Assembly (NCBI GenBank): GCA_965229935.1
Contig: CBDDKB010000002.1
Location: 772,165-836,164 of the forward strand
Reading direction: 5' to 3'
DNA: 64,000 bases
Source: Alphaproteobacteria bacterium
Lineage (GTDB): Bacteria; Pseudomonadota; Alphaproteobacteria; SPJN01
Part shown: one piece after another, positions 5,157 to 54,425 of the stretch
Layout: every line of letters starts with the position of its first letter
Numbering within the stretch: the stretch's first letter is position 1
Notes under the pieces: generated by a model
What the model was told of the DNA's origin: nothing
What the model saw: only the letters and a program-made list of their open reading frames with translations
Databases searched by the model: none
Made by a program: the position numbers and the translations under genes

Positions 5157-5230
5157 TGGGGAATAGTTTAACGGTAGAACTCCGGACTCTGACTCCGGCA
5201 GTCCTGGTTCGAATCCAGGTTCCCCAGCCA
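5157..5230 (+). tRNA. tRNA-Gln (anticodon CUG)
   Basis: Cloverleaf folded by hand. The acceptor stem is TGGGGAA/TTCCCCA. The anticodon stem is CCGGA/TCCGG with loop CTCTGAC: U33, anticodon CTG, A37. The T-arm CCTGGTTCGAATCCAGG is identical to E. coli tRNA-Gln. Discriminator G plus CCA are encoded. Confidence 0.9.
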
Positions 5231-6016: not shown

Positions 6017-6394
6017 TCAGGCACCAAACTCGCTATGGAAGGTTGCGCTGTCCACAAACTCTTCAAGACGGGTGATGCGGGTCTCATCACATTCAAAAAA
6101 GATTGCCGCATGAATGGCAAAAGCAGACCCGTCAGGCTTTTCAGCATGCAGTATATGTGATTGCGCTACACCGTCTGGGGTAGGGTAACGCCTCAAAACT
6201 TCGTAACGCGGGCGCTGCAAAACACCAAAGACATTGTGCAGAATTTTCATACTGCCGGCACGGTCCTTTTCTTTGTTATCTGTGTTGTGCCAGACGATCA
6301 CATCATCTGCGTAGATGGCTTCTACGGTAGCAAAATCTCCTGCCTCAAGCGCCGCAAAAAATCGCTCGATCAGAGTAAGTCGTTTGTCAGTCAT
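6017..6394 (-). CDS. NTF2/SnoaL-like (ketosteroid isomerase-like) small protein
   Basis: 125 aa; the N-terminal LIERFFAALEAGDFATVEAIYADDVIVWHN matches the SnoaL/NTF2-like fold signature. It is translationally adjacent to the methyltransferase. Confidence 0.6.
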   Translation of the reverse strand: MTDKRLTLIERFFAALEAGDFATVEAIYADDVIVWHNTDNKEKDRAGSMKILHNVFGVLQRPRYEVLRRYPTPDGVAQSHILHAEKPDGSAFAIHAAIFFECDETRITRLEEFVDSATFHSEFGA

Positions 6395-6525
6395 TTATGT
6401 TCTCCGCTGTTTTGATCAACTTACAACAAACTCCTTGTCTGCCAACTATCCAAGTTGACTAGATTGCTGATTCCTCCCCACCAAGCTATATTGCCAGCCT
6501 AAAACAAAATTAGGCGGGGGTATTT

Positions 6526-8247
6526 ATGGCACGCATATTGCGCGGGTTGCTGATCATACTGGCTATGGTCATTGTTGTTGCGGGGCTTGGCGGTTTTGCC
6601 CTTTATCGTCAGTGGAACCCTGCGCCGCCTGCGGCACAGGTTTTCTATAATGGGCCTGTACTGACCATGAATGCCGATAATGACATTGCCGATGCAGTCC
6701 TGGTGAAAGGCAATGCTATCGCGATGGTTGGCGCGACAGATGATGTGCTGGCAGCAGCGCCCGAAAGTGCCATCCGCCATGACTTAAAGGGCAGGGCGCT
6801 GATGCCGGGCTTTATTGATGCCCATGGTCATTATCCCGGTTGGGGGGTGATGAGTGTCGCGGTCAATCTCTCAAGCCCTCCCGTCGGGAACGTCCGCACC
6901 ATAGACGAGATTAAGGCCCTGATCGCGGCCAAGGCTGCCACTGCCGCGCCGGGCGCGTGGATCGTTGGCATGGGCTATGACGATACATTGATTGCCGAAA
7001 TGCGCCACCCAACCGCGGCTGACCTTGATGAGGTTGCCCCAGATAATCCGGTCGGGATCCTGCATGTGTCAGGTCACATGTTGGTTGTGAATTCCCGCGC
7101 CATGCAGGAAATGGCGGTTGATAAAAACACACCTGATCCTGAGGGGGGCGAGATTGTCCGTTATGAGGACGGCTCGCCGACCGGGCTGATGAAGGAAACG
7201 GCAACCTATATCTTCCAGCCCAAATTGTTGGGCTTTGGCCCCGCGGATATTTTAACGCTGTTGCAGGCGGGGAATGACGATTATCTCTATAAGGGGGTAA
7301 CAACCGCGCAAAATGGCCTGTCAGACAAAATGATGTTTGAACCCTTGGGCTGGGCATCCCGCGTCGGCTTTATCCCGATCCGCATCGTCTCTTTGGTTGA
7401 TGCGGAATTCGCGCTGGAATCGATGCAGACAGGCACGCTGTTTGATTTTGAAAGCGACAAGTATCATGTGGCGGGGGTTAAAATCGTCACCGATGGGTCC
7501 ATTCAGGGCTATACTGGGTATTTGGGCGAACCGTATTTTGTTCCCCATACAAGCCATGGCCCTGACTATCGCGGCTATCCGATCTATCAGGCAGATGACT
7601 TGAACGATCTTGTTTCACGTTCAATGCAGGCAGGATTGCGGCCCTATTTGCATGGCAATGGCGATGCATCGATTGACATGATTTTGGATGCGGTGGAGTT
7701 GGGGCAGCAGGCTGCGCCCACTATGCACGATGCGTGGCCTGTGATCATTCATGCGCAGATGATGCGGTCCGACCAGATCGCACGGGCAAAGGCGCTTTCT
7801 GTCAGCCCCAGTTTTTTCAACGCCCATGTCTATTATTGGGGGGATCGACATCGGGATATTTTTATGGGGCCAGAACGGGCCGCGAGGATGAGCCCGATGA
7901 ATGAGGCTTTGATGGCAGAGCTACCCTTTACGTTGCATCTCGACACGCCGATTGTGCCGATGGACCCTTGGGTCATGATCTGGTCTGCGGTTGAACGGCA
8001 AACATCAAGCGGCAATGTGTTGGGCCCGGATCAACGGATCAGCCTGATGCAAGCCATTCGCGGCACGACGATTGACGCTGCATGGCAGGCAGGGCTTGCG
8101 GACAAGACAGGTAGTATCGAGCAGGGCAAATGGGCTGATCTGATCATTGTTGATCAAGACCCGCGCACCGCAACAGACTTGCGGGCGATCAAGACCATCG
8201 CAACATTTGTCGGTGGCGTGGAACATTATCGGGCAGGCGCGAACTGA
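6526..8247 (+). CDS. Amidohydrolase family 3 (YtcJ-like metal-dependent hydrolase) with an N-terminal membrane anchor or signal
   Basis: N-terminal hydrophobic helix, the PGFIDAHGHY metal-binding HxH motif, and a length of about 570 aa typical of the amidohydrolase 3 family. Confidence 0.85.
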   Translation: MARILRGLLIILAMVIVVAGLGGFALYRQWNPAPPAAQVFYNGPVLTMNADNDIADAVLVKGNAIAMVGATDDVLAAAPESAIRHDLKGRALMPGFIDAHGHYPGWGVMSVAVNLSSPPVGNVRTIDEIKALIAAKAATAAPGAWIVGMGYDDTLIAEMRHPTAADLDEVAPDNPVGILHVSGHMLVVNSRAMQEMAVDKNTPDPEGGEIVRYEDGSPTGLMKETATYIFQPKLLGFGPADILTLLQAGNDDYLYKGVTTAQNGLSDKMMFEPLGWASRVGFIPIRIVSLVDAEFALESMQTGTLFDFESDKYHVAGVKIVTDGSIQGYTGYLGEPYFVPHTSHGPDYRGYPIYQADDLNDLVSRSMQAGLRPYLHGNGDASIDMILDAVELGQQAAPTMHDAWPVIIHAQMMRSDQIARAKALSVSPSFFNAHVYYWGDRHRDIFMGPERAARMSPMNEALMAELPFTLHLDTPIVPMDPWVMIWSAVERQTSSGNVLGPDQRISLMQAIRGTTIDAAWQAGLADKTGSIEQGKWADLIIVDQDPRTATDLRAIKTIATFVGGVEHYRAGAN

Positions 8248-9270
8248 TCAGGGGGTAACCGGGTGCAGCGTGGTCCTGATAAGGTCATCGTCGCGCAATA
8301 GCTGCCGCAAATCAGCAGAGCCTTGTTCCACCAATTGGTGTTGTTTATCTATGATAGCTGTTTGCCAGCTTGGGCGTGCTTTCAGACGATCAAAATAGGC
8401 AGCCACATTGCTTAGATCACTGTGCGACTTGTAATAATCAAGCCAGCCAGTTTCGTCGATGCGCAGCAAGGCACTGGCGAGCGTGATGTCTGCCAATGTG
8501 AATTGATCGCCCAATATCCAGTCGCCGGCTGATTGGCCAAGCGCATCGTCCAGCTTTTTCAAATGATTGCGTGCTGCATCACGTGCGCCACCCACAAGGT
8601 CAGTCAGGGGCTTTGCACGCATCAAACCGCGCAGGCCGAACAGCTTGGCAGCGGTGAAAAAGAAGGGGCGTTTCTTGTCAGGATGAAATAGCAGCCCCGG
8701 CACCAGTTTGCCGAAGCTGATATACTGCATCATGGTCACAAAGATCGGCATGGTCAGGGCGGGGACGCAAGGCCCCAATCGGCCTTCCTGATTACCCAAA
8801 GGGTCGTCATTAGTGATGTTGCAATAGTCAAGCCAGAGGTTCATCTCTGCCAGCTTATCAGGATCGGTCGGGGTCAGTTGCGGCGCATCGGCTGCTGCGT
8901 GGGCGGCGGCATATTTCAGAATATCGTCTGATTCATAGATCGGATTGCCGTTATGAACCAGTACAGGCAATATACCAGCCGGATTGACCTTTAAGTAGGC
9001 TGGGCTGATGGTTTCATACTGGCCTGTTTCAACCAGATCTATGGGCCTATGGGTATAGGTGATCCCCAATTCTGCCATGGCAAGCCGTGCCTTGCGCGAA
9101 CAGTGGGAGAATGAGTTGCTGTAAAGCTCAAACTCATCCTCATAGGGCAGGGTAATATCAGTGTGAATGCCACCAGCCATCGGGTGCGATTTGCGGCGTG
9201 ATTTTTCAACCCCATACCAGACCACAAATATGGCGAGTATAACCAGTGTGATGAGCAGCCCTGTGGACAT
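8248..9270 (-). CDS. Glutathione S-transferase family protein (Cys-type active site) with an N-terminal transmembrane anchor
   Basis: N-terminal TM helix, a thioredoxin-like GST N-domain (ELYSNSFSHCSRKARLAMAELGI...ILPVLVHNGNPIYESDDI) and a helical C-domain. A strong SD (GAGGGAGG) precedes the ATG at 9270. Confidence 0.7.
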   Translation of the reverse strand: MSTGLLITLVILAIFVVWYGVEKSRRKSHPMAGGIHTDITLPYEDEFELYSNSFSHCSRKARLAMAELGITYTHRPIDLVETGQYETISPAYLKVNPAGILPVLVHNGNPIYESDDILKYAAAHAAADAPQLTPTDPDKLAEMNLWLDYCNITNDDPLGNQEGRLGPCVPALTMPIFVTMMQYISFGKLVPGLLFHPDKKRPFFFTAAKLFGLRGLMRAKPLTDLVGGARDAARNHLKKLDDALGQSAGDWILGDQFTLADITLASALLRIDETGWLDYYKSHSDLSNVAAYFDRLKARPSWQTAIIDKQHQLVEQGSADLRQLLRDDDLIRTTLHPVTP

Positions 9271-17874: not shown

Positions 17875-19224
17875 TTAGATGCCTGCGACGGTCATGCGGT
17901 CAACCCGGATCGTTGGGGCATTGACGCCGCGCACAAATTCAAGGTCGCTTGCCGGGGTTGCAGCCATCAACATCTCTTTCAAATTGCCTGCAATGGTAAC
18001 CTCTGAAACAGGCTCCGCCAACTCACCATTTACAATGTGGAAGCCGGCCGCGCCGCGTGAATAGTCACCTGTGACAAGGCTGGGGCCTTGTCCCAAAAAT
18101 TCTGTGACGTAAAAGCCATCTTTGATGTCGCTGATCAAATCGGTGGGGCTAAGCGCACCCGCTTCGATATATAGGTTTGTCGGGGCAGGGGATGGCGGAG
18201 CGCCCGTGCCACGCGCCGCCCGTCCATTGGGTCTGCGCCCCAATTGCAGGGCGGTGGCATGGTCAAGCAGATAATGTTTTAAAACGCCATTTTCGACCAA
18301 ACGCATGGGGCGGTTTTCTGTGCCTTCCCCATCAAAGGGTTTTGAGCGCAGCCCGCGCAGTCTATGCGGGTCATCCATAATGGTGATGGCGCTGTTGGCA
18401 ATTTGCTCGTCCAACTTATCCAACAAAAAGCTAGACCCGCGCGTAATGGCACTGCCTGAGATTGCCCCCGTAACCGATGTCGCGAATGAGCCTGAGACAC
18501 GCGGATCAAACACAACTGTGCGTGGCCCGGTTTCAAGGCGGATTGGGTTGACGCGGCGCGCGGCCTTTTCGCCTGCCTCCCGGCCAATTTCTTCTGGCGC
18601 GCGCAGATCAGATAGATGGCGCGTATTATAGGCGGCGTAATCCTGCTGCATATTATTATCATCACCTGCAATCAGTGACAGGCCAACACCGTAGCTTGTG
18701 CCATCATATGCGCCCTCAAAACCGCCTGAAGTTGCCAGCGCGACAGAACTGCGAGATTGGTCAGCGCCTGCGCCTGATGAACGGCGGACGCCATCAACAG
18801 CAAGCCCGGCTGCTTCGGCTGCCATCGCCCTGTCTACAAGTGTCTGACTGTCAAGGTGCGCGGTATCAACAAGGTCAAGGTCGCGGGCCTGCCGGACCAG
18901 CAATTCAGTATCCGCCAACCCTGCATAGGGGTCCTCTGGTGCGATGCGCGCCATCGCGACAGCACGTTCCACAGCCTCCGCCAAGGCGGTCGGGCGGAAG
19001 TCTGTTGTTGAGACCATTGCCTGACTGCGCCCGACAAAGACACGCAGGCCCAAATCCTGACTTTCGCTGCCTTCAATGTCTTCTAACTTGCCGTCGCGGA
19101 CACTGGCTGCTTCTGCCTCCGACTGGACAAACAGCGCGTCTGCCTGATCCGCGCCTGCCTTTATGGCATTGGCAACTATTGTCGCGGCAATGTCTAATGC
19201 TTCGTCTCTTGGCTTTAGGGTCAT
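17875..19224 (-). CDS. pmbA: Metalloprotease PmbA (TldE), TldD/PmbA family
   Basis: 449 aa. A PmbA-like N-terminus and the C-terminal GxC...HIVNGE region typical of the TldD/E family. Confidence 0.85.
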   Translation of the reverse strand: MTLKPRDEALDIAATIVANAIKAGADQADALFVQSEAEAASVRDGKLEDIEGSESQDLGLRVFVGRSQAMVSTTDFRPTALAEAVERAVAMARIAPEDPYAGLADTELLVRQARDLDLVDTAHLDSQTLVDRAMAAEAAGLAVDGVRRSSGAGADQSRSSVALATSGGFEGAYDGTSYGVGLSLIAGDDNNMQQDYAAYNTRHLSDLRAPEEIGREAGEKAARRVNPIRLETGPRTVVFDPRVSGSFATSVTGAISGSAITRGSSFLLDKLDEQIANSAITIMDDPHRLRGLRSKPFDGEGTENRPMRLVENGVLKHYLLDHATALQLGRRPNGRAARGTGAPPSPAPTNLYIEAGALSPTDLISDIKDGFYVTEFLGQGPSLVTGDYSRGAAGFHIVNGELAEPVSEVTIAGNLKEMLMAATPASDLEFVRGVNAPTIRVDRMTVAGI

Positions 19225-26032: not shown

Positions 26033-26174
26033 CCGGCCCTGTTCAGCCAATCACAATCACGTGTATGGGCCCAATTCAGCCCCGATCCGGGGAAGCGGTG
26101 TGCAGTTCCGGCTTGCTCTACCCCCTATGGTCGGCTAGGCAGAACAAAACAATCTGTTGAACGAGTCTTGTCTT

Positions 26175-27539
26175 ATGGCCTCTCCCGCGCCTGAAACTGC
26201 ACCGCTGACCAGCAAGGATGATCTGCTGGCCCCCTTGGCAGGCGGCTGCAAACCCAAATCTGCGTTCCGTATTGGGACGGAGCATGAGAAATTCGGCTTT
26301 CATACCGCAGATTTTTCCCCGCTGGAATATGATGGCCCTAATGGGGTTGAGGCACTGTTGAAAGGTCTGCAGCGTTTCGGCTGGGATCCTGTTGTAGAAC
26401 AAGACAAGCTGATTGCGTTGAAACAACATGGCGCGTCCGTGACGCTGGAACCGGGCGGGCAATTGGAATTGTCCGGCGCCCCGCTTGAAACCATTCATCA
26501 AACCTGTAGCGAGGTGAACCGTCATCTTGATCAGGTGCGTGAGGTTACAGCGGAATTAGGGCAGGGATTTTTAAGCCTTGGCTTTTCACCAAAATGGACC
26601 CGTGAAGAAACGCCGATTATGCCCAAGGGGCGTTATGGCATTATGCGGAACTATATGCCTAAAAAAGGCAATCTTGGCCTTGATATGATGTTCCGGTCCT
26701 GCACGGTGCAGGTCAATCTTGATTTTGAAACAGAACAGGACATGGCGCGCAAGATGCGCATCGGCATGGCATTGCAACCGATTGCGACGGCGCTGTTCGC
26801 TAACTCGCCCTTTGTTGAGGGCAAGCCCAACGGCTTCCAAAGTTTTCGGTCCCATATTTGGACTGATACCGATCCTGATCGTTGCGGCATACTACCCTTC
26901 GTGCTTGAGGATGGGTTCAGCTTTGAGCGGTGGGTTGATTATGCCTTATCGGTGCCGATGTATTTCGTCTATCGCGATGGCAATTATATTGATGTGTCCG
27001 GCCAATCCTTTGTTGATTTCATGAAGGGGGAGCTGCCCGGTTTGAAGGGCGAGCTGCCGACCATGAAAGATTGGGAAGATCATCTGACAACTCTGTTCCC
27101 TGAAGTACGCCTGAAAGGCTTTATCGAAATGCGCGGTGCTGACAGTGGTCCATGGGGCCGATTGTGCGCGCTGCCGGCATTATGGGTCGGTCTATTGTAT
27201 GATGACAAATCGTTAGACGATGCAGAGGCGCTGATCGAAAGCTGGAGCGTTGATGCCATCAGCACCATGCGGGACGATGTGCCGACACAGGGCCTGCACA
27301 CAAAGGCACCTGATGGACGCACCTTGCGCGAGGTTGCGCGTGATGTTGTTGAGATTGCCCATCAGGGCCTAGCTGCGCGCGGCTATACAGATGGGTTGGG
27401 GAATGATGAAACCATGTTCCTGCGCCCGCTGCATGAGATTCTGGATAGCGGTAAAAGCGCGTCTGACCTGTTGCTGGATCAATATCACAATGAATGGAAC
27501 GGCGATATTAACTGCGTGTTCCGCGACCACGCCTATTGA
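26175..27539 (+). CDS. gshA: Glutamate--cysteine ligase, plant/alphaproteobacterial type (GCS2 family)
   Basis: GCS2-family motifs (RIGTEHEKFGF) and a length of about 455 aa. The ORF-track start is a TTG at 26157; the first in-frame ATG is at 26175. Confidence 0.8.
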   Translation: MASPAPETAPLTSKDDLLAPLAGGCKPKSAFRIGTEHEKFGFHTADFSPLEYDGPNGVEALLKGLQRFGWDPVVEQDKLIALKQHGASVTLEPGGQLELSGAPLETIHQTCSEVNRHLDQVREVTAELGQGFLSLGFSPKWTREETPIMPKGRYGIMRNYMPKKGNLGLDMMFRSCTVQVNLDFETEQDMARKMRIGMALQPIATALFANSPFVEGKPNGFQSFRSHIWTDTDPDRCGILPFVLEDGFSFERWVDYALSVPMYFVYRDGNYIDVSGQSFVDFMKGELPGLKGELPTMKDWEDHLTTLFPEVRLKGFIEMRGADSGPWGRLCALPALWVGLLYDDKSLDDAEALIESWSVDAISTMRDDVPTQGLHTKAPDGRTLREVARDVVEIAHQGLAARGYTDGLGNDETMFLRPLHEILDSGKSASDLLLDQYHNEWNGDINCVFRDHAY

Positions 27540-28657
27540 GTGACGCTTGGCGCGTCACCTTCATCACTGATTGCAGTTTCTTCAAGGTCAGCTTCTTTCT
27601 CTTCTTCCAGTGGCTCCCGCAAGCTTGGGTCGATGGCACCTGCTAACCATTCCTGATTGAAATAGGTCAGATCGGGGCGGGACAAAAGGGGTGTCAAATC
27701 TTCGGACAGGGCCAAATGTATGGCGCGCAGTTCACGTGCTGCGTTGAACCAATCTTGTGCGTCGATCAGGTCAGAAACCTTTGTCAGGTTTGATGCGTGT
27801 GCCGCCAGCAAAGGCCGAGCCGGATCGGCAGGGTCTAGCCGTTCATGCACCAAGCCTATTTCTGCGCGCAATGCCGTAACAACAAATGTGCTGGCGCCTG
27901 CTTGTTTTTCTTCGATTGTGCGCTGGCCAATTAATGTGGCGCGCGTAATCGCATCAATCATATAACGCACATATTGTTTGTCTGTGCTTTCATCGGCATA
28001 GGGGCTGGGCTGCAGCGGCGTTGACTGTTTTAGGGCAGTGACATAGGCGCTTAATGCATTCAGGATAAGCGCGTCCGGTTCGGGGCCAGAAAAATCATCG
28101 ACGATGACTTTGCTGATATAGCTCGTCAGATCGTCAATCGGCTCAATCGTGCCAAAGGGGCTTTGTGCCTGTGTCAGGTCGCTGATCGGGCGCGGATTGT
28201 CAGACAGGTCGTCACCTGTGTTGGAAAACAGGCTGTGTGAGACGTCGATGCGTCCGGGACGTGGCGATAGCGGCGGTAAGGAGAAATGGGTTTCGGCCCG
28301 TCCTGCCGGATGACAAGCATTGCAGCTTAACCCCAGTTCAAGCGCATAGCCGCCAAATAGCGTGGGGGAGCGGAAGGCAACGCGCCCCAATTCAATCAGG
28401 GCGGACTGCCCCTTTGCAATATCATCAGATGGTAAGGCTGTTACCAGCGCTACACGATCAGCATCGGCGTCAAGCCAAGTCATCATTTGGATCGGGGTTT
28501 GGTCGGGTTCCTCAATCAACTCTTCTTCGACAAGGGCTGCATCATCCTCAGGCAATTCTGCCTGCACAGGCCCTTCAACAGCGGCAGCGGCTGTGCCAGC
28601 GACGAAAGCCGCAGCGCCGAACATAAGTGCAGCGATGAAATCCCCCCGGCGAAACAT
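27533..28657 (-). CDS. Periplasmic protein with a single CXXCH heme-binding motif in a cytochrome-c-peroxidase-like N-terminal context, an uncharacterised C-terminal domain and an acidic tail
   Basis: Signal peptide, then ELGRVAFRSPTLFGGYALELGLSCNACHPAG, which resembles the first heme site of di-heme CCP/MauG. No second CXXCH is present. It starts 2 nt after the tldD stop. Confidence 0.5.
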   Translation of the reverse strand: MFRRGDFIAALMFGAAAFVAGTAAAAVEGPVQAELPEDDAALVEEELIEEPDQTPIQMMTWLDADADRVALVTALPSDDIAKGQSALIELGRVAFRSPTLFGGYALELGLSCNACHPAGRAETHFSLPPLSPRPGRIDVSHSLFSNTGDDLSDNPRPISDLTQAQSPFGTIEPIDDLTSYISKVIVDDFSGPEPDALILNALSAYVTALKQSTPLQPSPYADESTDKQYVRYMIDAITRATLIGQRTIEEKQAGASTFVVTALRAEIGLVHERLDPADPARPLLAAHASNLTKVSDLIDAQDWFNAARELRAIHLALSEDLTPLLSRPDLTYFNQEWLAGAIDPSLREPLEEEKEADLEETAISDEGDAPSVTQ

Positions 28658-28659
28658 GA

Positions 28660-30105
28660 TCAGCCTGTGCCGCCCACGGTAATGCCATCAAGGCGCAATG
28701 TGGGCTGGCCAACACCAACCGGGACACCCTGACCCTGCTTGCCGCAAACGCCTATCCCTGTATCAAGTGCCATGTCGTTGCCGATCATGGAAATGCGTTT
28801 CAGCGTATCTGCGCCATTGCCGATCAGGGTTGCGCCCTTTACAGGCGCGCCAAGCTTGCCATTTTCGATCATGTAAGCTTCGGTGCAGCTAAACACGAAT
28901 TTGCCTGATGCAGTTTCAACCTGCCCACCGCCAAAGCTGGTAGCATAGATGCCTGATTTGACGCTTTCCAAAATCGCGCCGGGGTCTTCATTCCCGTTCA
29001 ACATATAGGTGTTGGTCATGCGTGGGATCGGTTGGTGTGCATAAGATTGGCGTCGGCCGTTCCCGGTCGGTTGCGCCCCAGACAGGCGGGCGCTTAGCCG
29101 ATCATGCATAAAGCCTTTCAGCACGCCATCTTCGATTAACACAGTCCGTTCGGTTGGCGTACCTTCATCATCTATGGTTAGCGAGCCGCGCCGATCAGCA
29201 ATCGTGCCATCATCAACAACCGTCACCCCCGGTGCGGCGACCTGCTGGCCTACCAGTGTGGAAAAAACGGATGCGCCCTTGCGGGTTAAATCGCCTTCGA
29301 GCCCGTGGCCGACAGCTTCGTGAAACAGGATGCCGGGCCAGCCTGCGCCCAGCACAACAGTCATTTCACCTGCGGGGGCATCGATTGATTCTAGGTTTAC
29401 GGCGCCGCGCCGGATCGCTTCGTCAGCGCGGGCCTGCCAATAGGCCTCGTCCATAATGGTGTCAAAGCCGATGCGGCCGCCGCCGCCATCGCTGCCGGTT
29501 TCGCGCCGTTCGCCATCTTGCATAACGACTGACACGTTCAAACGGACCAACGGACGAATATCCTGCATCACCCGGCCATCAGCACGCATAATGGCAACCG
29601 CCTGCCATGACCCGGCGAGGGAGCAGGAGACCTGCTTAACCCTTGGGTCTTTAGCGCGGGTATAGGCGTCAATCTCGGCCAACAGGGCGGTTTTTTGTTC
29701 AAACGGAATGGCATTCAGCGGATTGTCTGCCACGTATAGCGATTGGTTGGTGGCGTTCGGTGCCTCAGCCATGGTGCCCGAATGGCCGGACTTGACTGCT
29801 GAAATCGTCGCTACAGCGCGTTTCAAGGCAGATTCTGACAGGTCCGCAGCGTGGGCATAACCTTGTGCCTCGCCCGCAACGGCGCGCAGGCCAAAGCCCT
29901 GATTCGTATCGAAATTGGCGCTTTTTAGCCGCCCATCGTCAAAAACAAGGCTTTCGGATTGGCAATATTCAAGGAATAATTCACCATCATCCGCGCCGCT
30001 CAACCCCTCTTTTACCAGCGATTCTGCTCGTGTTCTGTCCAGACCAGCCTGATCGAAGAACAATGATTCAGCTGAGGAGAGGGGGCTGTTGGCGGTATTA
30101 GACAT
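28660..30105 (-). CDS. tldD: Metalloprotease TldD
   Basis: 481 aa with a TldD-like N-terminus and the conserved HExxxH-like and GxC regions of the family. Confidence 0.9.
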   Translation of the reverse strand: MSNTANSPLSSAESLFFDQAGLDRTRAESLVKEGLSGADDGELFLEYCQSESLVFDDGRLKSANFDTNQGFGLRAVAGEAQGYAHAADLSESALKRAVATISAVKSGHSGTMAEAPNATNQSLYVADNPLNAIPFEQKTALLAEIDAYTRAKDPRVKQVSCSLAGSWQAVAIMRADGRVMQDIRPLVRLNVSVVMQDGERRETGSDGGGGRIGFDTIMDEAYWQARADEAIRRGAVNLESIDAPAGEMTVVLGAGWPGILFHEAVGHGLEGDLTRKGASVFSTLVGQQVAAPGVTVVDDGTIADRRGSLTIDDEGTPTERTVLIEDGVLKGFMHDRLSARLSGAQPTGNGRRQSYAHQPIPRMTNTYMLNGNEDPGAILESVKSGIYATSFGGGQVETASGKFVFSCTEAYMIENGKLGAPVKGATLIGNGADTLKRISMIGNDMALDTGIGVCGKQGQGVPVGVGQPTLRLDGITVGGTG

Positions 30106-30414
30106 ATAGTTTTTGCAATCTCTGGGCGGTTACGAGCGGATTTTGTCAAATATGGGGGGCTTAAAGCGATAGGACAAGCCTTTTACATCATTCAGGTGTA
30201 ACTTGCGGCTTGCTGTCGCCCTAAAAAGGGCTGACTTGAATTGATTGAACCATTATGGTCTTTCACCAACTGACTCGGCGCTTGTGGACGCATGTGGCAA
30301 TGCTTGTAAGTCCATCGGGGCCTTTAGGGATTTCTAACAGGCGGTCGGCCTGTGAACTGTTCGATTGGAATAGTTTGTACACCGACCCCAAGATTTAAGG
30401 GAGCAAGTCGATCT

Positions 30415-31266
30415 ATGCGGCTTAAGCGACTGAATCCGACGACACTGCTAGGTGGCCTGATGGCGCTTTTCGGCAGCGTTCTATTCTCATCTTCAGCTTT
30501 GGCTGATGCGCGCGAGGACTGGGGCCTTGGCTTTTTGGAAGCTGCCTCACCTGTGATGGAACAGATTACTGAATTCCACAATCTGCTGCTGGTCATCATT
30601 GTGGCCATCACATTGCTGGTTCTGTTCCTTCTGCTTTATGTGATGTTCCGTTTCCGCGAAAGCGCAAACCCGGAACCGTCAAAGACATCGCACAATACGC
30701 TGGTCGAAATTATCTGGACCGCCGTGCCGATCTTGATTTTGGTTGTGATTGCGATCCCGTCTTTCCGTCTTCTGTATTATTCGGACACAATTCCCGAAGA
30801 TATTGACATGACCATCAAAGCAACCGGCCATCAATGGTATTGGTCATATGCCTATCCTGATCACGGCAATTTCGAATTTGATTCTCTGATGCTGGAAGAT
30901 GACGAACTGCCAGAAGGTGGTCAGCGTCTGCTTGATGTTGATAATCAGATTGTTGTGCCCGTGAACGCAAAAGTGCGCGTTTTGGTGACAGCAAGCGACG
31001 TGATTCATAACTGGGCAATGCCGGAATTCGGGAACAAGACCGACGCCGTGCCTGGCCGTATCAATGAAACCTGGTTCCAGGCAACACGTACCGGCACATT
31101 CTATGGTCAGTGTTCTGAGCTGTGCGGTATCCGCCATGCCTTCATGCCAATCCGTGTCGACGTTGTGACACAGGAAGAGTTTGATGCATGGGTTGCCCAA
31201 GCCAAGGAAGAATTTGCTAGCGCCGATCGCACCAACTTTAATGTTGCGACCGTAGCTGCTGACTAA
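30415..31266 (+). CDS. coxB: Cytochrome c oxidase subunit II (aa3-type)
   Basis: Signal and two TM helices; CuA site HNWAMPEFG...CSELCGIRHAFM. The start was refined to the ATG at 30415 (SD AAGGGAG). Confidence 0.9.
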   Translation: MRLKRLNPTTLLGGLMALFGSVLFSSSALADAREDWGLGFLEAASPVMEQITEFHNLLLVIIVAITLLVLFLLLYVMFRFRESANPEPSKTSHNTLVEIIWTAVPILILVVIAIPSFRLLYYSDTIPEDIDMTIKATGHQWYWSYAYPDHGNFEFDSLMLEDDELPEGGQRLLDVDNQIVVPVNAKVRVLVTASDVIHNWAMPEFGNKTDAVPGRINETWFQATRTGTFYGQCSELCGIRHAFMPIRVDVVTQEEFDAWVAQAKEEFASADRTNFNVATVAAD

Positions 31267-31315
31267 AAGTTTGAGGATTTGTCCGCTCGCCAACGAGGCG
31301 AATGCGGACAGTTAG

Positions 31316-32908
<1,593 letters not shown>

Positions 32909-32924
32909 GAAAGCGAAATTGAAA

Positions 32925-32951
32925 GACCCGGCAAGCCGCCGGGTCTTTTTC
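32925..32951 (+). terminator. Intrinsic terminator/attenuator between ctaD and ctaB
   Basis: GACCCGGC/GCCGGGTC stem with a 5-nt loop, followed by TTTTT. Confidence 0.5.
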
Positions 32952-32952
32952 T

Positions 32953-33879
32953 ATGGGACGAGTGGACAATATCGTGACGGAACAAGCTGCCATTACAGAA
33001 GAACAGTATGCGGAGGTGCGTGACTTCATGTCATTGCTGAAACCGCGTGTGATGTCGCTTGTGGTGTTCACAGCCCTCATTGGTCTGGTTGCTGCGCCTG
33101 TTGGTGTTCATCCGCTGATCGGCTTTACCGCCGTGTTAGCGATTGCCGTGGGGGCGGGTGCCTCAGGCGCGCTCAACATGTGGTATGACCGCGATATTGA
33201 TGCAGTGATGAGCAGGACCAAGGACCGCCCGATCCCTGCTGGTAAAGTAACGGCAGAACAGGCATTGACCTTTGGCCTGATCCTATCTGGCCTTTCTGTG
33301 CTGGTATTGGGCGTGCTGGTCAATTATGTGGCCGCAGCGTTGCTGGCCTTCACCATTTTCTTTTACGCGGTCGTTTACACAATGTGGCTGAAACGATCGA
33401 CGCCGCAAAACATCGTTATTGGCGGTGCGGCAGGGGCCTTTCCGCCCATGATTGGCTGGGCCGCTGCAACAGGCACGGTTGGGCTGGAATCACTATCCCT
33501 GTTTTTGATCATCTTTCTTTGGACGCCTGCGCATTTCTGGGCGCTGGCGCTTGTGAAGGAGGGCGATTATGGCAAGGTTGGTGTGCCGATGATGCCCAAT
33601 GTGGCTGGGCCTGCCTCAACCAGACGCCAAATTGTGCTTTATACTGTTCTGACATTGATTATTTCGGCCGCTCCCGTTGCATTGGGGTTTGCCGGAATGG
33701 TCTATGGTCTGACCGCAGCGATTGGCGGTGCAATCTTCCTGATTTTGGCGCTGATGGTTTGGCGGGTACGTGAAGGGCAGAACGCCACAAAAGTAGCGAT
33801 GCGTCTGTTCGGATTTTCCATCCTGTATCTATTTGTCCTGTTTGCATCGCTGGGGCTTGAGCATACATTATTGGCCTAA
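32953..33879 (+). CDS. ctaB: Protoheme IX farnesyltransferase (heme O synthase)
   Basis: UbiA superfamily; [14 protein letters not shown] motif and nine TM helices. Confidence 0.9.
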
Positions 33880-33899
33880 ATGTACAGGAATTGTTGATT

Positions 33900-34046
33900 A
33901 TGCCTATTACCGAAGAACATAAGAAAAAGCGCAGCGTAAACCTTGCCGTTGGTTTGACCTTGGCAGCTTTGGTTATTTTGTTTTTTGCGGTTACCGTTGT
34001 CCGTATCGGCAACAATGCAGCAGAATCCGGCGTTACGGGTTTTTAA
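33900..34046 (+). CDS. Small (48 aa) single-TM protein between ctaB and ctaG (CoxF-like cox-cluster small ORF); it is not in the supplied ORF track
   Basis: ATG at 33900 and TAA at 34044-34046, read directly. The sequence is MPITEEHKKKRSVNLAVGLTLAALVILFFAVTVVRIGNNAAESGVTGF: a positive N-terminus followed by one TM helix. It fits tightly between ctaB and ctaG. Confidence 0.45.
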   Translation: MPITEEHKKKRSVNLAVGLTLAALVILFFAVTVVRIGNNAAESGVTGF

Positions 34047-34051
34047 CTAGT

Positions 34052-34621
34052 ATGACTGACGCCACACCACATTTTCACGGTACGGATGATGCGGCGGCAA
34101 AGGCCCGTCGGGTGATGCTGATCTGTGTGTCTGTTGTGGTGTTGATGATCGGCGCGGCTTATGCGTCTGTGCCGCTATATGATCTGTTTTGCCGTGTGAC
34201 CGGTTACGGTGGAACCACCAACCAATCTGACACAGAATCGGCAGTAATTTTGGATCGGGATGTCACTGTACGTTTCGATTCGAATGTAGCGCGTGGCCTG
34301 AATTGGAAGTTTGAGGCCCTGCAGGGCCCCCAGCACCTTAAAGTCGGTGAAACTGGTTTGGCCTTTTACCGGGCGACGAACCTGTCAGATCAACCAATTG
34401 TCGGCACGGCGACCTATAATGTGACGCCGCAAAAGGCCGGTGCCTATTTCATGAAAATTGAATGTTTCTGCTTTACAGAACAACGCATCGAACCGGGCCA
34501 AAGCATTGATATGCCTGTAACTTTTTACATTGATCCAGAGATTGTCGACGAAGAGTATCTGGACGATGTGGAAACCTTTACCCTGTCCTATACTTTTTTT
34601 GAGAAAGAGGACGAGGGCTGA
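34052..34621 (+). CDS. ctaG: Cytochrome c oxidase assembly protein CtaG/Cox11
   Basis: Cox11 copper-binding region (FCFTEQ) and an N-terminal TM anchor. Confidence 0.85.
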   Translation: MTDATPHFHGTDDAAAKARRVMLICVSVVVLMIGAAYASVPLYDLFCRVTGYGGTTNQSDTESAVILDRDVTVRFDSNVARGLNWKFEALQGPQHLKVGETGLAFYRATNLSDQPIVGTATYNVTPQKAGAYFMKIECFCFTEQRIEPGQSIDMPVTFYIDPEIVDEEYLDDVETFTLSYTFFEKEDEG

Positions 34622-34792
34622 TCCATTCGCGTCCGTTCATTTGTGGCGAAAGGACGCGCAAAAAGGCCTGATTTTCCAGTGCGGTAAATCTGGCAAAATG
34701 CGGTGCACATGGCTATTGTGACCCGCGAATTACATCATTTGGGCGAATCTCACCTCGCGAGGTTTGCCGTTTCAATTGAGGGGTGAAAACCT

Positions 34793-35590
34793 ATGGCAGA
34801 TAGTCACGCCAAAGCGCACGATTATCATCTCGTTGATCCAAGTCCGTGGCCGTTGCTCGGCTCCGTGTCGGCATTTGTGCTGGCCATCGGCGCGATTGCG
34901 AATTTCAAGGATTGGTCGTTTAGCTGGCTGATGTATGTCGGCTTTGCAATGGTCTTCTACGTCATGTTCGCATGGTGGAAAGACGTGATTTCCGAAGCCA
35001 AGGATGGCGGCTTTCACACGCCTGTTGTTCAGCTTCATCACCGCTATGGCATGATCCTGTTCATTGCATCAGAGGTTATGTTCTTTGTTGCCTGGTTCTG
35101 GGCCTTCTTTGATGCGTCATTGTTCCCGAAGGAACAAATCGGTGGTGTTTGGCCCCCAGTTGGGATTGAAACGTTTGATCCGTGGCATTTGCCCTTGATC
35201 AACACATTGATCTTGCTTTTGTCGGGTACAACGGTCACCGCAGCTCATCATTATTTGATCGAAGGCAATAAGGACCAGACCGTTAAATGGCTGGTTGCAA
35301 CCGTTGCCTTGGGTGTTTTGTTCACCTGCTTCCAAATTTATGAGTATGGCCACGCAACCTTCAACTTCTCTGGTCACATTTACGGCGCCACATTCTTTAT
35401 GGCGACCGGGTTCCATGGTTTCCATGTGCTGGTCGGGACCATCTTCCTGTTTGTCAATCTGGTTCGTGCTATGCGCGGCTCATTCAAGCCTGATCATCAT
35501 TTCGGCTTTGAAGCTGCAGCTTGGTACTGGCACTTTGTTGACGTGGTATGGTTGTTCCTGTTTGCCGCCATTTACATTTGGGGCGGTTGA
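34793..35590 (+). CDS. ctaE: Cytochrome c oxidase subunit III
   Basis: 265 aa, seven TM helices, conserved subunit-III motifs (HHYLIEGN, GFHGFHV). Confidence 0.9.
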   Translation: MADSHAKAHDYHLVDPSPWPLLGSVSAFVLAIGAIANFKDWSFSWLMYVGFAMVFYVMFAWWKDVISEAKDGGFHTPVVQLHHRYGMILFIASEVMFFVAWFWAFFDASLFPKEQIGGVWPPVGIETFDPWHLPLINTLILLLSGTTVTAAHHYLIEGNKDQTVKWLVATVALGVLFTCFQIYEYGHATFNFSGHIYGATFFMATGFHGFHVLVGTIFLFVNLVRAMRGSFKPDHHFGFEAAAWYWHFVDVVWLFLFAAIYIWGG

Positions 35591-35689
35591 TCAGCAGGCG
35601 CTGAATACTAATCAGCCTTTGCCGCATTGAATAGCGCGCCCCGGACCTTAAGATGAGGTTCGGGGCGTTTGCATTTGGAAGAGAATTTT

Positions 35690-36163
35690 ATGTCTGATCG
35701 TGATTTTGTTCCGCAGGACCTTCCTGCCCGTTCATCGACGGGAGAAGACGGCGCGGGCGAGGGCTCTGCAAAGCCTCGCATGGCCTATGCCCCACAATCG
35801 CCATTTTCAACTGGCGTTCGTAGCCGTTGCCCCCGATGTGGTGAGGGCAAGCTTTACAAGGGACTGTTGGAGGTGCGCGAAAGCTGTGATCATTGCGGGC
35901 TGGATTATTCCCAAGTGGATAGCGGCGATGGCCCCGCAGTTTTTGTGATTTTTATATTGGGCGCGGTAACTGTGTTGGGTGCCTTGTTGGTTGATTCACT
36001 ATTCGCGCCGCCATATTGGGCCCATGCGATTATTTGGGCGCCTGTTATTATTGGCGGGTCTATTGGCTTGCTGGCCCCCTTCAAGGGCGTTTTGATAGCC
36101 CTGCAATATCATAATAAGGCGCGCGAAGGCCGCCTTGACACGCAACCGGGCGGTCAGGACTGA
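35690..36163 (+). CDS. DUF983 domain protein (Zn-ribbon CPRCGEG...CDHCG plus two TM helices), typical of cox clusters
   Basis: CxxC...CxxC zinc-ribbon followed by TM helices. The ATG at 35690 has an SD; the ORF-track start at 35669 is a TTG. Confidence 0.7.
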   Translation: MSDRDFVPQDLPARSSTGEDGAGEGSAKPRMAYAPQSPFSTGVRSRCPRCGEGKLYKGLLEVRESCDHCGLDYSQVDSGDGPAVFVIFILGAVTVLGALLVDSLFAPPYWAHAIIWAPVIIGGSIGLLAPFKGVLIALQYHNKAREGRLDTQPGGQD

Positions 36164-36165
36164 TC

Positions 36166-36867
36166 ATGCGCTTCACCTTTCGACCAGGCCTGACTTTGGC
36201 CGCGCTGCCAGTCTTTGTGGTGCTTTGTTTGCTGGGGAACTGGCAGGTTGATCGGTTGGCGTGGAAAGAGACGCTGATCGATACTGTCGAGGCGCGTATT
36301 GACCAGCCACCAGTGCCGCTGCCGGACGCTGCATTACTTGGACAGGAAGCTAACTATTTGCCCGTCACTGTGTCTGGTGAGTTTGATCATAGTCGTGAGA
36401 TTATTCTGACAGGGCGCAGTGTTGAAGGCCAGGGCGGTTATTTGGTGCTGACCCCGCTCAAGACCCAATTGCAGGGCTGGATCTTGGTTGAGCGCGGTTT
36501 TGTGCCGCCGCCATTTAAAGCGGCCTCTTCGCGCGGCGAAGGGCAGGTTGCGGGGCAGATTCAGCTATCGGGCCTTCTGCATAAGCCGCTGGAGCCGGGG
36601 CCGTTCGTCCCCGCCAATATGCCTGATCAGGGTGATTGGTACGCAATCGACATTCCCTCTATGGGGCAGGCAGTGGGGCTTGAACTCTATCCGATGGTGC
36701 TTGTGGCAGATGCGACAGCAACGCCGCCTTTTGGCTGGCCCAAGGCGGGGCAGGCGCGGATAGCGTTTCCCAATAACCATCTTGGCTATGCCATTACATG
36801 GTTCGGCCTGGCCTTTTCCCTGATATGCGTCTGGCTGGCGATGAGCCTCAGCCGCGCAAGAGAGTAA
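36166..36867 (+). CDS. SURF1 family cytochrome oxidase biogenesis protein
   Basis: N- and C-terminal TM helices and the SURF1 GNWQ(V)DRLAWK motif. Confidence 0.8.
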   Translation: MRFTFRPGLTLAALPVFVVLCLLGNWQVDRLAWKETLIDTVEARIDQPPVPLPDAALLGQEANYLPVTVSGEFDHSREIILTGRSVEGQGGYLVLTPLKTQLQGWILVERGFVPPPFKAASSRGEGQVAGQIQLSGLLHKPLEPGPFVPANMPDQGDWYAIDIPSMGQAVGLELYPMVLVADATATPPFGWPKAGQARIAFPNNHLGYAITWFGLAFSLICVWLAMSLSRARE

Positions 36868-52309: not shown

Positions 52310-53635
52310 ATGAGCAGCAACAACGGACCGAAGCGCGATTTTATTGATCCGCATGAATTGGCCGAGCCGTTTGAATCAAATAACGGCATCGTAAACTGGA
52401 TGGAAAGCCGTCTGCCCATTATCTCACTTGTGTATAATGCAGGCTTCTCTTTCCCCAGCCCCCGCAATCTGAACTACTTCTGGACCTTTGGTATGATTTT
52501 GAGCTTCATGCTCGTCTTCCAATTGGCCACCGGTATTGTTCTGGTGATGCATTACACGCCCCATGTCGATATGGCCTTTGCCTCTGTCGAGCATATTATG
52601 CGTGACGTGAATTATGGCTGGTTGTTGCGCTATGCGCATGCCAATGGCGCCAGCTTCTTCTTCATCGCTGTCTATATCCACATGATCCGTGGTCTGTACT
52701 ATGGTTCATACAAAGCCCCGCGCGAGGTGCTTTGGATCATCGGTGTTGCGATCTATCTTGTGATGATGGCAACAGGCTTCATGGGCTATGTGTTGCCTTG
52801 GGGTCAGATGAGCCTGTGGGGCGTGACCGTGATCACCAACCTGTTCTCAGCCTTGCCGTTGATTGGTGAGCCGCTGGTAACTCTGTTGTGGGGTGGTTTC
52901 TCTGTCGATAACCCGACGCTGAACCGCTTCTTCTCATTGCACTATCTGCTGCCGTTCGTCATTGCCGGTTTGGTTGTGTTGCACATTTGGGCGCTACATG
53001 TCCCGGGCAACAATAACCCGCTGGGTATCGACGTGAAGGGCAAGCAGGATACGCTGTCATTCTGGCCGTACTACCAGATCAAGGACATGTTCGCTCTTGT
53101 CGTCTTCCTGATCGTTTTCATGGGCTTTGTGTTCTATGCCCCGAACATGCTGGGTCACCCCGATAACTATATCGAGGCAAACCCCATGCAGACACCGCCG
53201 CACATTGTGCCTGAATGGTATTACCTGCCCTTCTATGCAATTCTGCGCTCAGTACCTGACATTCTGTTTATCCCTGCCAAGCTTGGCGGTGTGATTGCCA
53301 TGTTCGGTGCGATTGCCATTTGGGCGCTGATGCCCTGGCTCGACACCAGCCGCGTGCGTTCAAGCCGGTTCCGTCCGGTATGGCGCTGGTTCGTGTTCAT
53401 CTTCCTGGCAGACATGTTGCTGCTGGGGTGGCTGGGCGCGCAGGTGCCGAACGATGTGCTTGTCCTGATCGGTCAGCTTTGCACGATCTACTATTTTGCC
53501 TTCTTCCTGATCATCATGCCTGTCATGGGCCTGATCGAAAAGCCGAAGCCCTTGCCCACATCAATCGCTGATGAGGTTTTGGGCGGTGCGGCAGCGCCCG
53601 AAGGGGCCGCTGCAGCGCAGGAAAAACGCGGTTAA
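52310..53635 (+). CDS. petB: Cytochrome b
   Basis: 441 aa with eight TM helices and heme-ligating His pairs; it follows petA. Confidence 0.95.
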
Positions 53636-53654
53636 GGTGAGGGGAGATAAGGAA

Positions 53655-54425
53655 ATGACAATGTTCAAAACAGCCCGTAACCTTTTCATTGCTGCCGGTG
53701 TTGCCTTTGCAGGCATGACCGGAATGGCAGCCGCTGCCGGTGGCGAGGTTCATATTCCCGAACAGGAATGGTCGTTTGACGGCCCGTTCGGGACCTTTGA
53801 TCGCGCAGCATTGCAGCGTGGTTTTCAGGTCTATTCAGAAGTGTGCGCCGCATGTCACGGAATGCAGTATCTGCATTACCGAAATTTGGGCGAAGCAGGT
53901 GGTCCTGAATTCACCGAGGCACAGGTGAAGGCTATTGCCGCTGCTGTCGATGTTTCTGACATTGATGATGAAGGTGAAACCATCGATCGTCCCGGCCTGC
54001 CCAAGGACAAATTCGTATCACCCTTTGCCAACACACGTGCCGCTGCGGCTGCACATGGTGTGGCACCGCCGGATTTGAGCCTGATGGCAAAAGCTCGCGT
54101 TGGTGGTCCTGACTATATTTTCGCACTGTTGAATGGTTATGAGGATGGTCCTGAGGACTTTGAAGGGGCGAACTATAACAAGTATTTCCCCGGTCATAAT
54201 ATTGCGATGGCACAGCCTTTGTTCGATGATCAGGTCGAATATCAGGACGGTACGCCCGCAACACAGGAACAGATGGCGCGTGATGTTTCCCAGTTCCTGA
54301 TGTGGGCAGCAGAGCCGAAGCTTGAAGCACGTCGGTCACTCGGCATTCGGGTTATGCTGTATCTGATTATTCTTGCTGGCCTCATGTACTTTGTGAAACG
54401 TAAGGTTTGGGCCGACGCGCACTAA
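53655..54425 (+). CDS. petC: Cytochrome c1
   Basis: Signal peptide, CAACH heme motif and a C-terminal TM anchor. The start was refined to the ATG at 53655 with an SD. Confidence 0.85.
   Translation: MTMFKTARNLFIAAGVAFAGMTGMAAAAGGEVHIPEQEWSFDGPFGTFDRAALQRGFQVYSEVCAACHGMQYLHYRNLGEAGGPEFTEAQVKAIAAAVDVSDIDDEGETIDRPGLPKDKFVSPFANTRAAAAAHGVAPPDLSLMAKARVGGPDYIFALLNGYEDGPEDFEGANYNKYFPGHNIAMAQPLFDDQVEYQDGTPATQEQMARDVSQFLMWAAEPKLEARRSLGIRVMLYLIILAGLMYFVKRKVWADAH

Follow-up and report, generated by a model that had tools for sequence, protein, structure and literature searches.

To our knowledge, all characterized bacterial members of the cytochrome c peroxidase (CCP)/MauG superfamily are di-heme proteins. 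The second heme is needed for peroxide reduction by the CCPs and for the long-range bis-Fe(IV) oxidation carried out by MauG. In the superfamily of bacterial CCPs (bCCPs) and MauG, the N-terminal heme is five-coordinate, low-potential and peroxidatic, and the C-terminal heme is six-coordinate, with His/Met ligation in the bCCPs and His/Tyr ligation in MauG and BthA (PMC6405878). Here we describe a gene with a single heme motif, which lies at 27533..28657 on the minus strand of a 64-kb stretch of alphaproteobacterial DNA (contig CBDDKB010000002.1); the whole stretch is called the window, and the gene and its protein are called X. The reading that we favor, with a probability of roughly 0.55, is that X is a Sec-exported periplasmic mono-heme protein that combines a heme domain remotely related to those of CCP/MauG with a four-helix bundle and has an open heme. 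We have high confidence that X is a heme protein of the CCP/MauG lineage and low confidence in any specific chemistry for it.

X is an intact, conserved gene with one heme motif. Its frame in the open reading frame (ORF) listing encodes 374 aa from an ATG start to a TAG stop (27533-27535). The protein has two cysteines only, both within the heme-attachment motif CNACH (residues 112-116; 28310..28324, on the minus strand like all parts of X given below), which provides C112, C115 and the proximal H116 and is the sole CXXCH of the reading frame. An earlier note, made from the letters of this locus, had reported just such a 374-aa frame with one CXXCH. It had also considered a frameshifted remnant of a di-heme peroxidase, in which a second CXXCH should appear in another frame. 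No second motif was found within X in any of the six frames of 27400-28800, where the other CXXCH hits are in the tldD antisense or span stop codons, and the remnant idea was rejected.

Residues 1-26 (28580..28657) have the look of a signal peptide, with RR, a hydrophobic core and a junction of AAA and VE. Judged heuristically, by inspection, the N-terminus MFRRGDFIAALMFGAAAFVAGTAAAA, followed by VEG, reads as a Sec signal peptide, and an uncharged hydrophobic N-terminal stretch was seen in 128 of 150 relatives in the family described below. Based on this N-terminus, X is probably exported to the periplasm, as either a soluble or an N-terminally anchored protein. Its heme is probably attached covalently. 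The signal peptide is followed by an acidic linker, ELPEDDAALVEEELIEEPDQ (residues 27-55; 28493..28579), which is poorly conserved (17% identical to other family members) and was modeled with low confidence (predicted local distance difference test, pLDDT, 48-55). At the other end of the protein is an acidic tail (residues 346-374; 27536..27622). The earlier note was correct in describing it as rich in Asp and Glu: the net charge over the last 30 residues is -9, compared to a family median of +1. The tail is specific to the clade of the window, being shared by the five closest relatives only, and the median family member stops 9 residues past L338.

Word-indexed protein searches returned only 4 and 15 proteins, and exhaustive HMMER searching was needed to reveal the family of X. 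The first word-indexed search gave three relatives, which were 43-66% identical to X and all in the same gene order; orthologues with these neighbors were 43-67% identical overall. A HMMER profile was built from X and these three relatives (four sequences) and used for an exhaustive search, which found 487 cluster representatives at E ≤ 0.001 (50% clustering) and 83 at E ≤ 1e-30. Most of the alignments span query positions ~55-345, that is, both halves of X. Of the 152 best matches, 134 carry a single CXXCH, are ~300-340 aa long and have the same two-part build; 17 are ~385-456 aa long and carry two CXXCH motifs, and one has none. The only source name that we encountered for any family member was "hypothetical protein", and a literature search found no description of this mono-/di-heme family. 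The versions from Sneathiella (L008-L039) are ~260-290 aa long, and their ORFs stop where the match to the convergent gshA stops (~6645). Thus, compared to X with its four-helix bundle, they may have a shorter helical domain at the C-terminus.

In an alignment of 150 sequences, W61, G91, F95, C112, H116, G135 and D138 are invariant, and C115, P98, G102, A105, G119, F125, S131, I158, L161, F189, R273 and Y205 are nearly so. R273 is kept in 145 of the 150. The heme motif (C112/C115/H116) is kept in 149-150 of them, so that it and the hydrophobic N-terminus, both of which the earlier note had proposed to look for in orthologues, are widespread. X itself has the full-length profile match over both domains together with W61, G91, F95, C112, C115, H116, G135 and D138, by which we delimit the family. 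Compared to its two closest orthologues, P0002 and P0003, X is 66-73% identical in the heme domain and 62-73% in the C-terminal domain, but 40-45% in the N-terminal linker and 31-34% in the tail. In P0004 and P0005, the identity of the heme domain and bundle drops to 37-50%. This pattern of well-kept domains with a drifting linker and tail points to a functional rather than a decaying gene. X thus belongs to a large family that is conserved and uncurated and in which the mono-heme build is dominant, and it is a stable derivative rather than a gene in decay. The view that X is what remains of a normal di-heme peroxidase, as a pseudogene or after a frameshift, is already largely refuted and very improbable: di-heme relatives are basal in a rough tree, implying loss of the second heme domain, and some family-conserved motifs are lost in the clade of the window, but the 374-codon frame is uninterrupted and has no second CXXCH to offer in any frame, the domains have stayed similar in the closest relatives while linker and tail drifted, mono-heme proteins are the majority build, and the predicted fold is confident.

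An AlphaFold2 model made with a four-sequence alignment had a pLDDT below 50 in the heme domain (residues 102-174), and the prediction was redone with 61 sequences. The second model has a mean pLDDT of 87.4 and a predicted template modeling score (pTM) of 0.80. In this model, residues 1-55 are a low-confidence signal peptide and linker. Residues 56-215 (28013..28492; pLDDT >90, and home to the invariant residues) are compact and have the layout of a class I cytochrome c, with an N-terminal helix (86-95), the CXXCH at 112-116 and a last helix (196-211) bearing a conserved "AYV". The C-terminal domain (residues 225-345; 27623..27985) comprises four long helices (225-249, 253-272, 280-299 and 303-326) and a short helix after them (335-342), and R264 and R273 are conserved in it. 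Residues ~346-374 are a low-confidence tail that includes a predicted helix at 351-364. The earlier note had stated that ~250 residues of the protein contain no recognizable domain. This holds for Pfam and NCBIfam, where no part of X was matched at E ≤ 1, and for the sequences in the PDB, where nothing meaningful was found. It does not hold structurally, as residues ~117-215 are predicted to complete the heme domain and 225-326 to fold as a four-helix bundle. The fold check that had been suggested therefore gave a confident model of a cytochrome c-like heme domain plus a bundle, although a structure search of the PDB with it gave nothing at E ≤ 0.001, as discussed below.

The origin of this architecture was indicated by the di-heme members of the family. 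In a profile-profile alignment (hhalign), the mono-heme family matched the di-heme member P0056 with a probability of 100% (E 1e-51). P0056 has the same N-terminal and the same C-terminal domain, with ~115 aa carrying a second CXXCH inserted between them. The inserted domain matches PF03150 (CCP_MauG) above the gathering threshold (e.g. 50.9 bits, E 3.5e-13) and also matches solved CCPs (3O5C, E 1.7e-9), and it is through this second heme domain that di-heme relatives pass PF03150, scoring 44-51 bits where the cutoff is 25.6. The same holds in outline for a Kordiimonadales IMCC3096 protein (L049 5800-7044) and P0067, which like P0056 share with X the N-terminal heme domain, the bundle and a terminal S-L-Y-like motif and differ from it by the ~115-aa second CXXCH domain between the two parts. 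Among 61 mono-heme members, PF03150 was the sole recurring Pfam family (13 of 61, all sub-threshold, best E 6.7e-4). In a rough neighbor-joining tree, which is only indicative, the di-heme forms are basal and paraphyletic and the mono-heme forms are nested within them. This suggests that the second heme domain was lost, possibly more than once. Taken together, these comparisons argue that the X family descends from bacterial di-heme peroxidases and has a four-helix bundle where these have their second heme domain. The two alternatives in the earlier note, a degenerate CCP-like protein or a new mono-heme family, were therefore each half right: the di-heme relatives provide the link to CCP/MauG, but X belongs to a stable family.

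The earlier note had likened the heme site of X to the high-potential site of the di-heme enzymes. Instead, the helix-plus-CXXCH segment of the family profile aligns to the N-terminal heme motifs of MacA (chain residues 32-75), P. aeruginosa CCP (6-60) and Paracoccus CCP (39-72), although these alignments are weak (E 0.017-0.6). Since the N-terminal heme is the low-potential one, the assignment to a high-potential site is unsupported. However, the assignment to the N-terminal motif is not clean. In a di-heme relative, the part that follows the CXXCH weakly matched the MbnH and MauG-like models of NCBIfam within their C-terminal-domain portion, and the two domains of CCPs are homologous to each other.

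Compared to the bCCPs (P. aeruginosa CcpA, 1EB7/2VHD; G. sulfurreducens MacA, 4AAL; S. oneidensis, 3O5C), X would likewise be a periplasmic c-type heme protein. Its segment ELGRVAF..P.L....SCNACH aligns with their N-terminal heme motif, and its downstream NP..I..L resembles the N(S/A)PT..N of CCP domains. X differs in having one heme and a C-terminal four-helix bundle that CCPs lack, and in being without a PF03150 match, a His/Met electron-transfer heme domain and an inter-heme Trp motif. With regard to MauG, MbnH and BthA, the di-heme relatives of X match the MbnH, MauG and His-Xaa-Ser MauG-like NCBIfam models sub-threshold, and the lack of a Met ligand in X recalls the non-Met ligation of these enzymes. 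There are, however, no substrate-protein genes near X. The bis-Fe(IV) chemistry of MauG-type enzymes needs two hemes (PMC6405878), and thus X, with a single heme, cannot carry it out. X has one CXXCH rather than two in two cytochrome c-like domains, and no ligand residue conserved in the 150 sequences that would give it the His/Met or His/Tyr electron-transfer heme of bCCP/MauG. It should be annotated neither as a bCCP/MauG protein proper nor as a class I electron carrier.

The surroundings of the heme were examined by a conservation scan of the 150 sequences. None of the residues Met, His, Lys and Tyr is conserved at the sixth-ligand position, and the stretch of X from residue 60 to 232 is devoid of Met. 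In a motif alignment, the column equivalent to the Met/Tyr ligand is Val/Ile in the X family. Y205 was considered as a MauG-like Tyr ligand, its spacing of 89 residues from H116 being equal to that between His205 and Tyr294 of MauG. This was tentatively rejected because the motif alignment places Y205 with the last-helix aromatic ("AFL/AYL") of CCP C-terminal domains, so that it is probably a structural aromatic of the last cytochrome c helix and not a ligand, another difference from MauG. A b562-like second heme site in the bundle was also rejected, as the bundle has no conserved Met or His. In addition, cytochrome b562 and cytochrome c' share with X a generic four-helix topology only, and the CXXCH of X is outside the bundle. 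A possible catalytic residue was found at E188, which lies ~17 residues past the DG(R) motif and is kept in 140 of the 150 sequences; it is D in X and the rest of its clade. The catalytic Glu114 of P. aeruginosa CCP is 19 residues past the equivalent Asp. The correspondence between E188 and the catalytic Glu of peroxidatic CCP hemes is a lead. The lack of a conserved sixth ligand and the position of E188 favor an open or weakly ligated heme of the peroxidatic type over an electron-carrier heme.

On this basis, a working mechanism can be outlined. X would bind a single c-type heme covalently at C112/C115, with H116 as the proximal ligand, and the heme would most likely be five-coordinate or weakly ligated. 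The bundle (225-345) would sit where the di-heme relatives have their electron-transfer heme domain, which in those proteins is followed by the same bundle. The heme may react with a small oxidant or ligand, for which H2O2 is the default candidate, or may oxidize a partner. Electrons would be drawn from an external donor and not from a built-in second heme. Any peroxidase-like chemistry of X is, like the open distal site, putative.

Several observations weigh against the reading just described. X itself did not match the CCP/MauG models at E ≤ 1, including PF03150, which the earlier note had named as the test, and the link to them runs via its relatives. A Foldseek search of the X model against the PDB gave nothing at E ≤ 0.001. 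The correspondence of E188 rests on motif spacing, and the sole indication of an open distal site is the lack of a conserved ligand. Family-conserved positions have been altered in the clade of the window (R107E, N122E, G129P, P159S, E188D, and PYGRDGR to PFGTIEP). These altered residues suggest that the chemistry may differ from that of the rest of the family, and the clade may be functionally divergent within it. Finally, the neighborhoods of the family are heterogeneous and do not have a clear peroxide theme.

Among the alternatives, the one that survives best is that X acts not as an enzyme but via a periplasmic tetratricopeptide repeat (TPR) partner, either as a scaffold or as a heme module for ligand binding or redox sensing. 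Outside the tldD loci, the most recurrent neighbor of the family is a TPR protein of ~300-350 aa that bears a signal peptide and is rich in Gly over one stretch. Its gene is directly upstream of mono-heme members in six independent loci (L007 3243-4220, L037 4880-5929, L040 4877-5827, L041 4979-5947, L131 4106-5014 and L132 4013-4978), mostly overlapping the start of the X-family gene, and in P0090 the TPR region is fused to the N-terminus of the X-family protein. This is the strongest signal of a functional partner for the family. The bundle also resembles interaction modules of the HPt, FliS and PsbQ types. However, neither a TPR homologue nor a paralogue of X is present in the 64-kb window, the clade of the window is without the extra Cys pair carried by most mono-heme members, and no signaling domain or regulator is consistently adjacent. 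We consider this alternative unlikely for X, though more likely than those that follow.

Other neighborhoods of the family were also recorded. In Kordiimonadales IMCC3096 and Minwuia, the gene of a xoxF-like pyrroloquinoline quinone dehydrogenase is followed by those of a small cytochrome c and of an SBP_bac_3 protein that is xoxJ-like, and the di-heme form comes fourth (L049 2539-7679, also L043, L044 and L048), with a glutathione S-transferase (GST) gene after it. The di-heme form may have an accessory role in a periplasmic alcohol-oxidation module. Other di-heme forms are downstream of ribonucleotide reductase. At L132, a catalase-peroxidase gene (KatG-type, PF00141, 768 aa; 6094-8400, minus strand) is convergent with the TPR and mono-heme pair. 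This single instance is compatible with a peroxide-related role and is not evidence for one.

Another explanation is that X is an electron-carrier cytochrome c, membrane-anchored or soluble, that serves the adjacent aa3 oxidase or the bc1 chain, like cytochrome c552 (CycM) of Paracoccus. That protein has a hydrophobic N-terminus, an acidic linker and a heme domain, as X does, and the class I layout of the heme domain, from its N-terminal helix and CXXCH to the C-terminal "AYV" helix, would suit such a carrier. X is one gene away from coxB-coxA-ctaB-coxC-SURF1, petB and cytochrome c1 are also in the window, and a small class I cytochrome c occupies the slot between tldD and gshA in one related locus. 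In contrast to Paracoccus c552, X has no Met as a sixth ligand and has an extra helical domain. Neither Cytochrom_C nor Cytochrome_CBB3 (PF00034/PF13442), nor any other Pfam model, matches X, and only 2-3 of 61 relatives match the two weakly. The gene is also absent from 79 of 80 related cox-tldD loci, and family members are located away from oxidase genes as well. A carrier role is thus rather improbable.

The last explanation to be weighed is a functional coupling of X to the TldD protease, as a substrate, a regulator or part of a co-regulated stress module. tldD is directly upstream of X (28660..30105, minus strand; NCBIfam TldD equivalog, 553.9 bits). Its TGA stop (28662-28660) is followed by 2 nt (TC) and then by the ATG of X (28657-28655), exactly as the earlier note had it, and no promoter-like or terminator-like site was found between the two genes. 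Because of this short gap and the lack of an intervening signal, tldD and X are likely co-transcribed, as the earlier note had proposed, although the functional tie that this might imply was not supported. On the other side of X is the convergent gshA (26157..27539, plus strand; glutamate-cysteine ligase of the plant/proteobacterial type, TIGR01436, 678.9 bits), whose 3' end overlaps the end of X by 7 nt, an arrangement that recurs in relatives.

The order coxA-coxB, tldD-X, gshA-rsmE, ubiA is common to the clade of the window, ~25 Sneathiella/Sneathiellales genomes and several alphaproteobacterial metagenome-assembled genomes (MAGs). Desertibaculum has the block with the di-heme form of X, and Ferrovibrio has cysE between tldD and X. 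The tldD-X order, sometimes with cysE between, thus recurs in mono-heme and di-heme forms, some di-heme members also occupying the tldD slot (L011, L026), and this speaks for coupling. However, TldD is cytoplasmic and X carries an export signal. When metagenomic tldD loci with TldD 59-71% identical were searched (tblastn, and hidden Markov models on all ORFs), a family member was found at 1 of 80 (L082), so that the co-occurrence with tldD that the earlier note had asked about is not consistent. Many family members are elsewhere, in TPR, xoxF-like and ribonucleotide reductase neighborhoods that have no tldD. In loci with both tldD and gshA, the two genes are 18 nt to 2.9 kb apart, and the space is filled by unrelated genes, for example a DsbH-like thioredoxin, an HlyD and major facilitator superfamily pump, or a small cytochrome c. 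Since the block exists without X and the contents of the tldD-gshA space are variable, X occupies a variable slot of a conserved housekeeping block. The link to tldD looks like a position in this block and not a shared function or pathway, and coupling to TldD is quite doubtful.

The tldD-gshA slot seems to be a hotspot where accessory genes of periplasmic redox function are found. Its occupants in other alphaproteobacteria include a 706-aa DsbH/DUF255 thioredoxin-like exported protein (L073 6444-8561, plus strand) and a 159-aa class I cytochrome c (L058 2114-2590, minus strand). In two lineages, cysE (serine acetyltransferase) lies between tldD and the heme-protein gene (L026 5084-5923 and L133 4187-5014). 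Thiol-metabolism genes recur near the family, namely cysE, the convergent gshA, the GST in L049 and a pyridoxal phosphate enzyme in L030. A thiol-metabolism theme was not adopted, since the gshA-rsmE-ubiA block is conserved also without X and the recurrence may be synteny.

The wider window was also surveyed. The nearest genome is the MAG Hyphomicrobiales bacterium BinT2.0009, with TldD 94% and CoxA 97% identical. A second TldD/PmbA-family gene, probably pmbA/tldE, lies at 17875-19224 (minus strand; three PmbA_TldD Pfam domains, E 1e-69), so that the protease pair is split, with its members ~9.5 kb apart, as is also the case in L001. The aa3 oxidase cluster is at 30352-36867 (plus strand; coxB, coxA, a UbiA-family heme O synthase, COX3 and SURF1), and the genes for bc1 cytochrome b and cytochrome c1 are ~16 kb past it (52310-54425, plus strand). 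These genes place X in a respiratory housekeeping region. The sole Rfam match at the gathering threshold in the window is a tRNA gene (5157-5227, plus strand).

In the source genome, X is an accessory passenger of this respiratory and housekeeping region and is not evidence of a new pathway. For the family, a broader interpretation of the favored mono-heme reading is possible, though we hold it only tentatively. X and its relatives may represent a new class of periplasmic heme protein, in which an ancestor lost the electron-transfer heme and kept an open reactive heme with a bundle as a cap and a dedicated TPR partner. Such a protein could be a mono-heme enzyme that activates an oxidant, with a protein or a small molecule as substrate, or a periplasmic redox or gas sensor. 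We know of neither a single-heme oxidant-activating enzyme nor a heme-based redox or gas sensor described for the bCCP/MauG superfamily. A large conserved branch without the second heme raises the questions of how the remaining heme is re-reduced, what it reacts with and why the pairing with a TPR protein is frequent. Since the family is without a Pfam or NCBIfam model and the one name encountered for a member is a hypothetical label, defining it would improve annotation in several hundred protein clusters.

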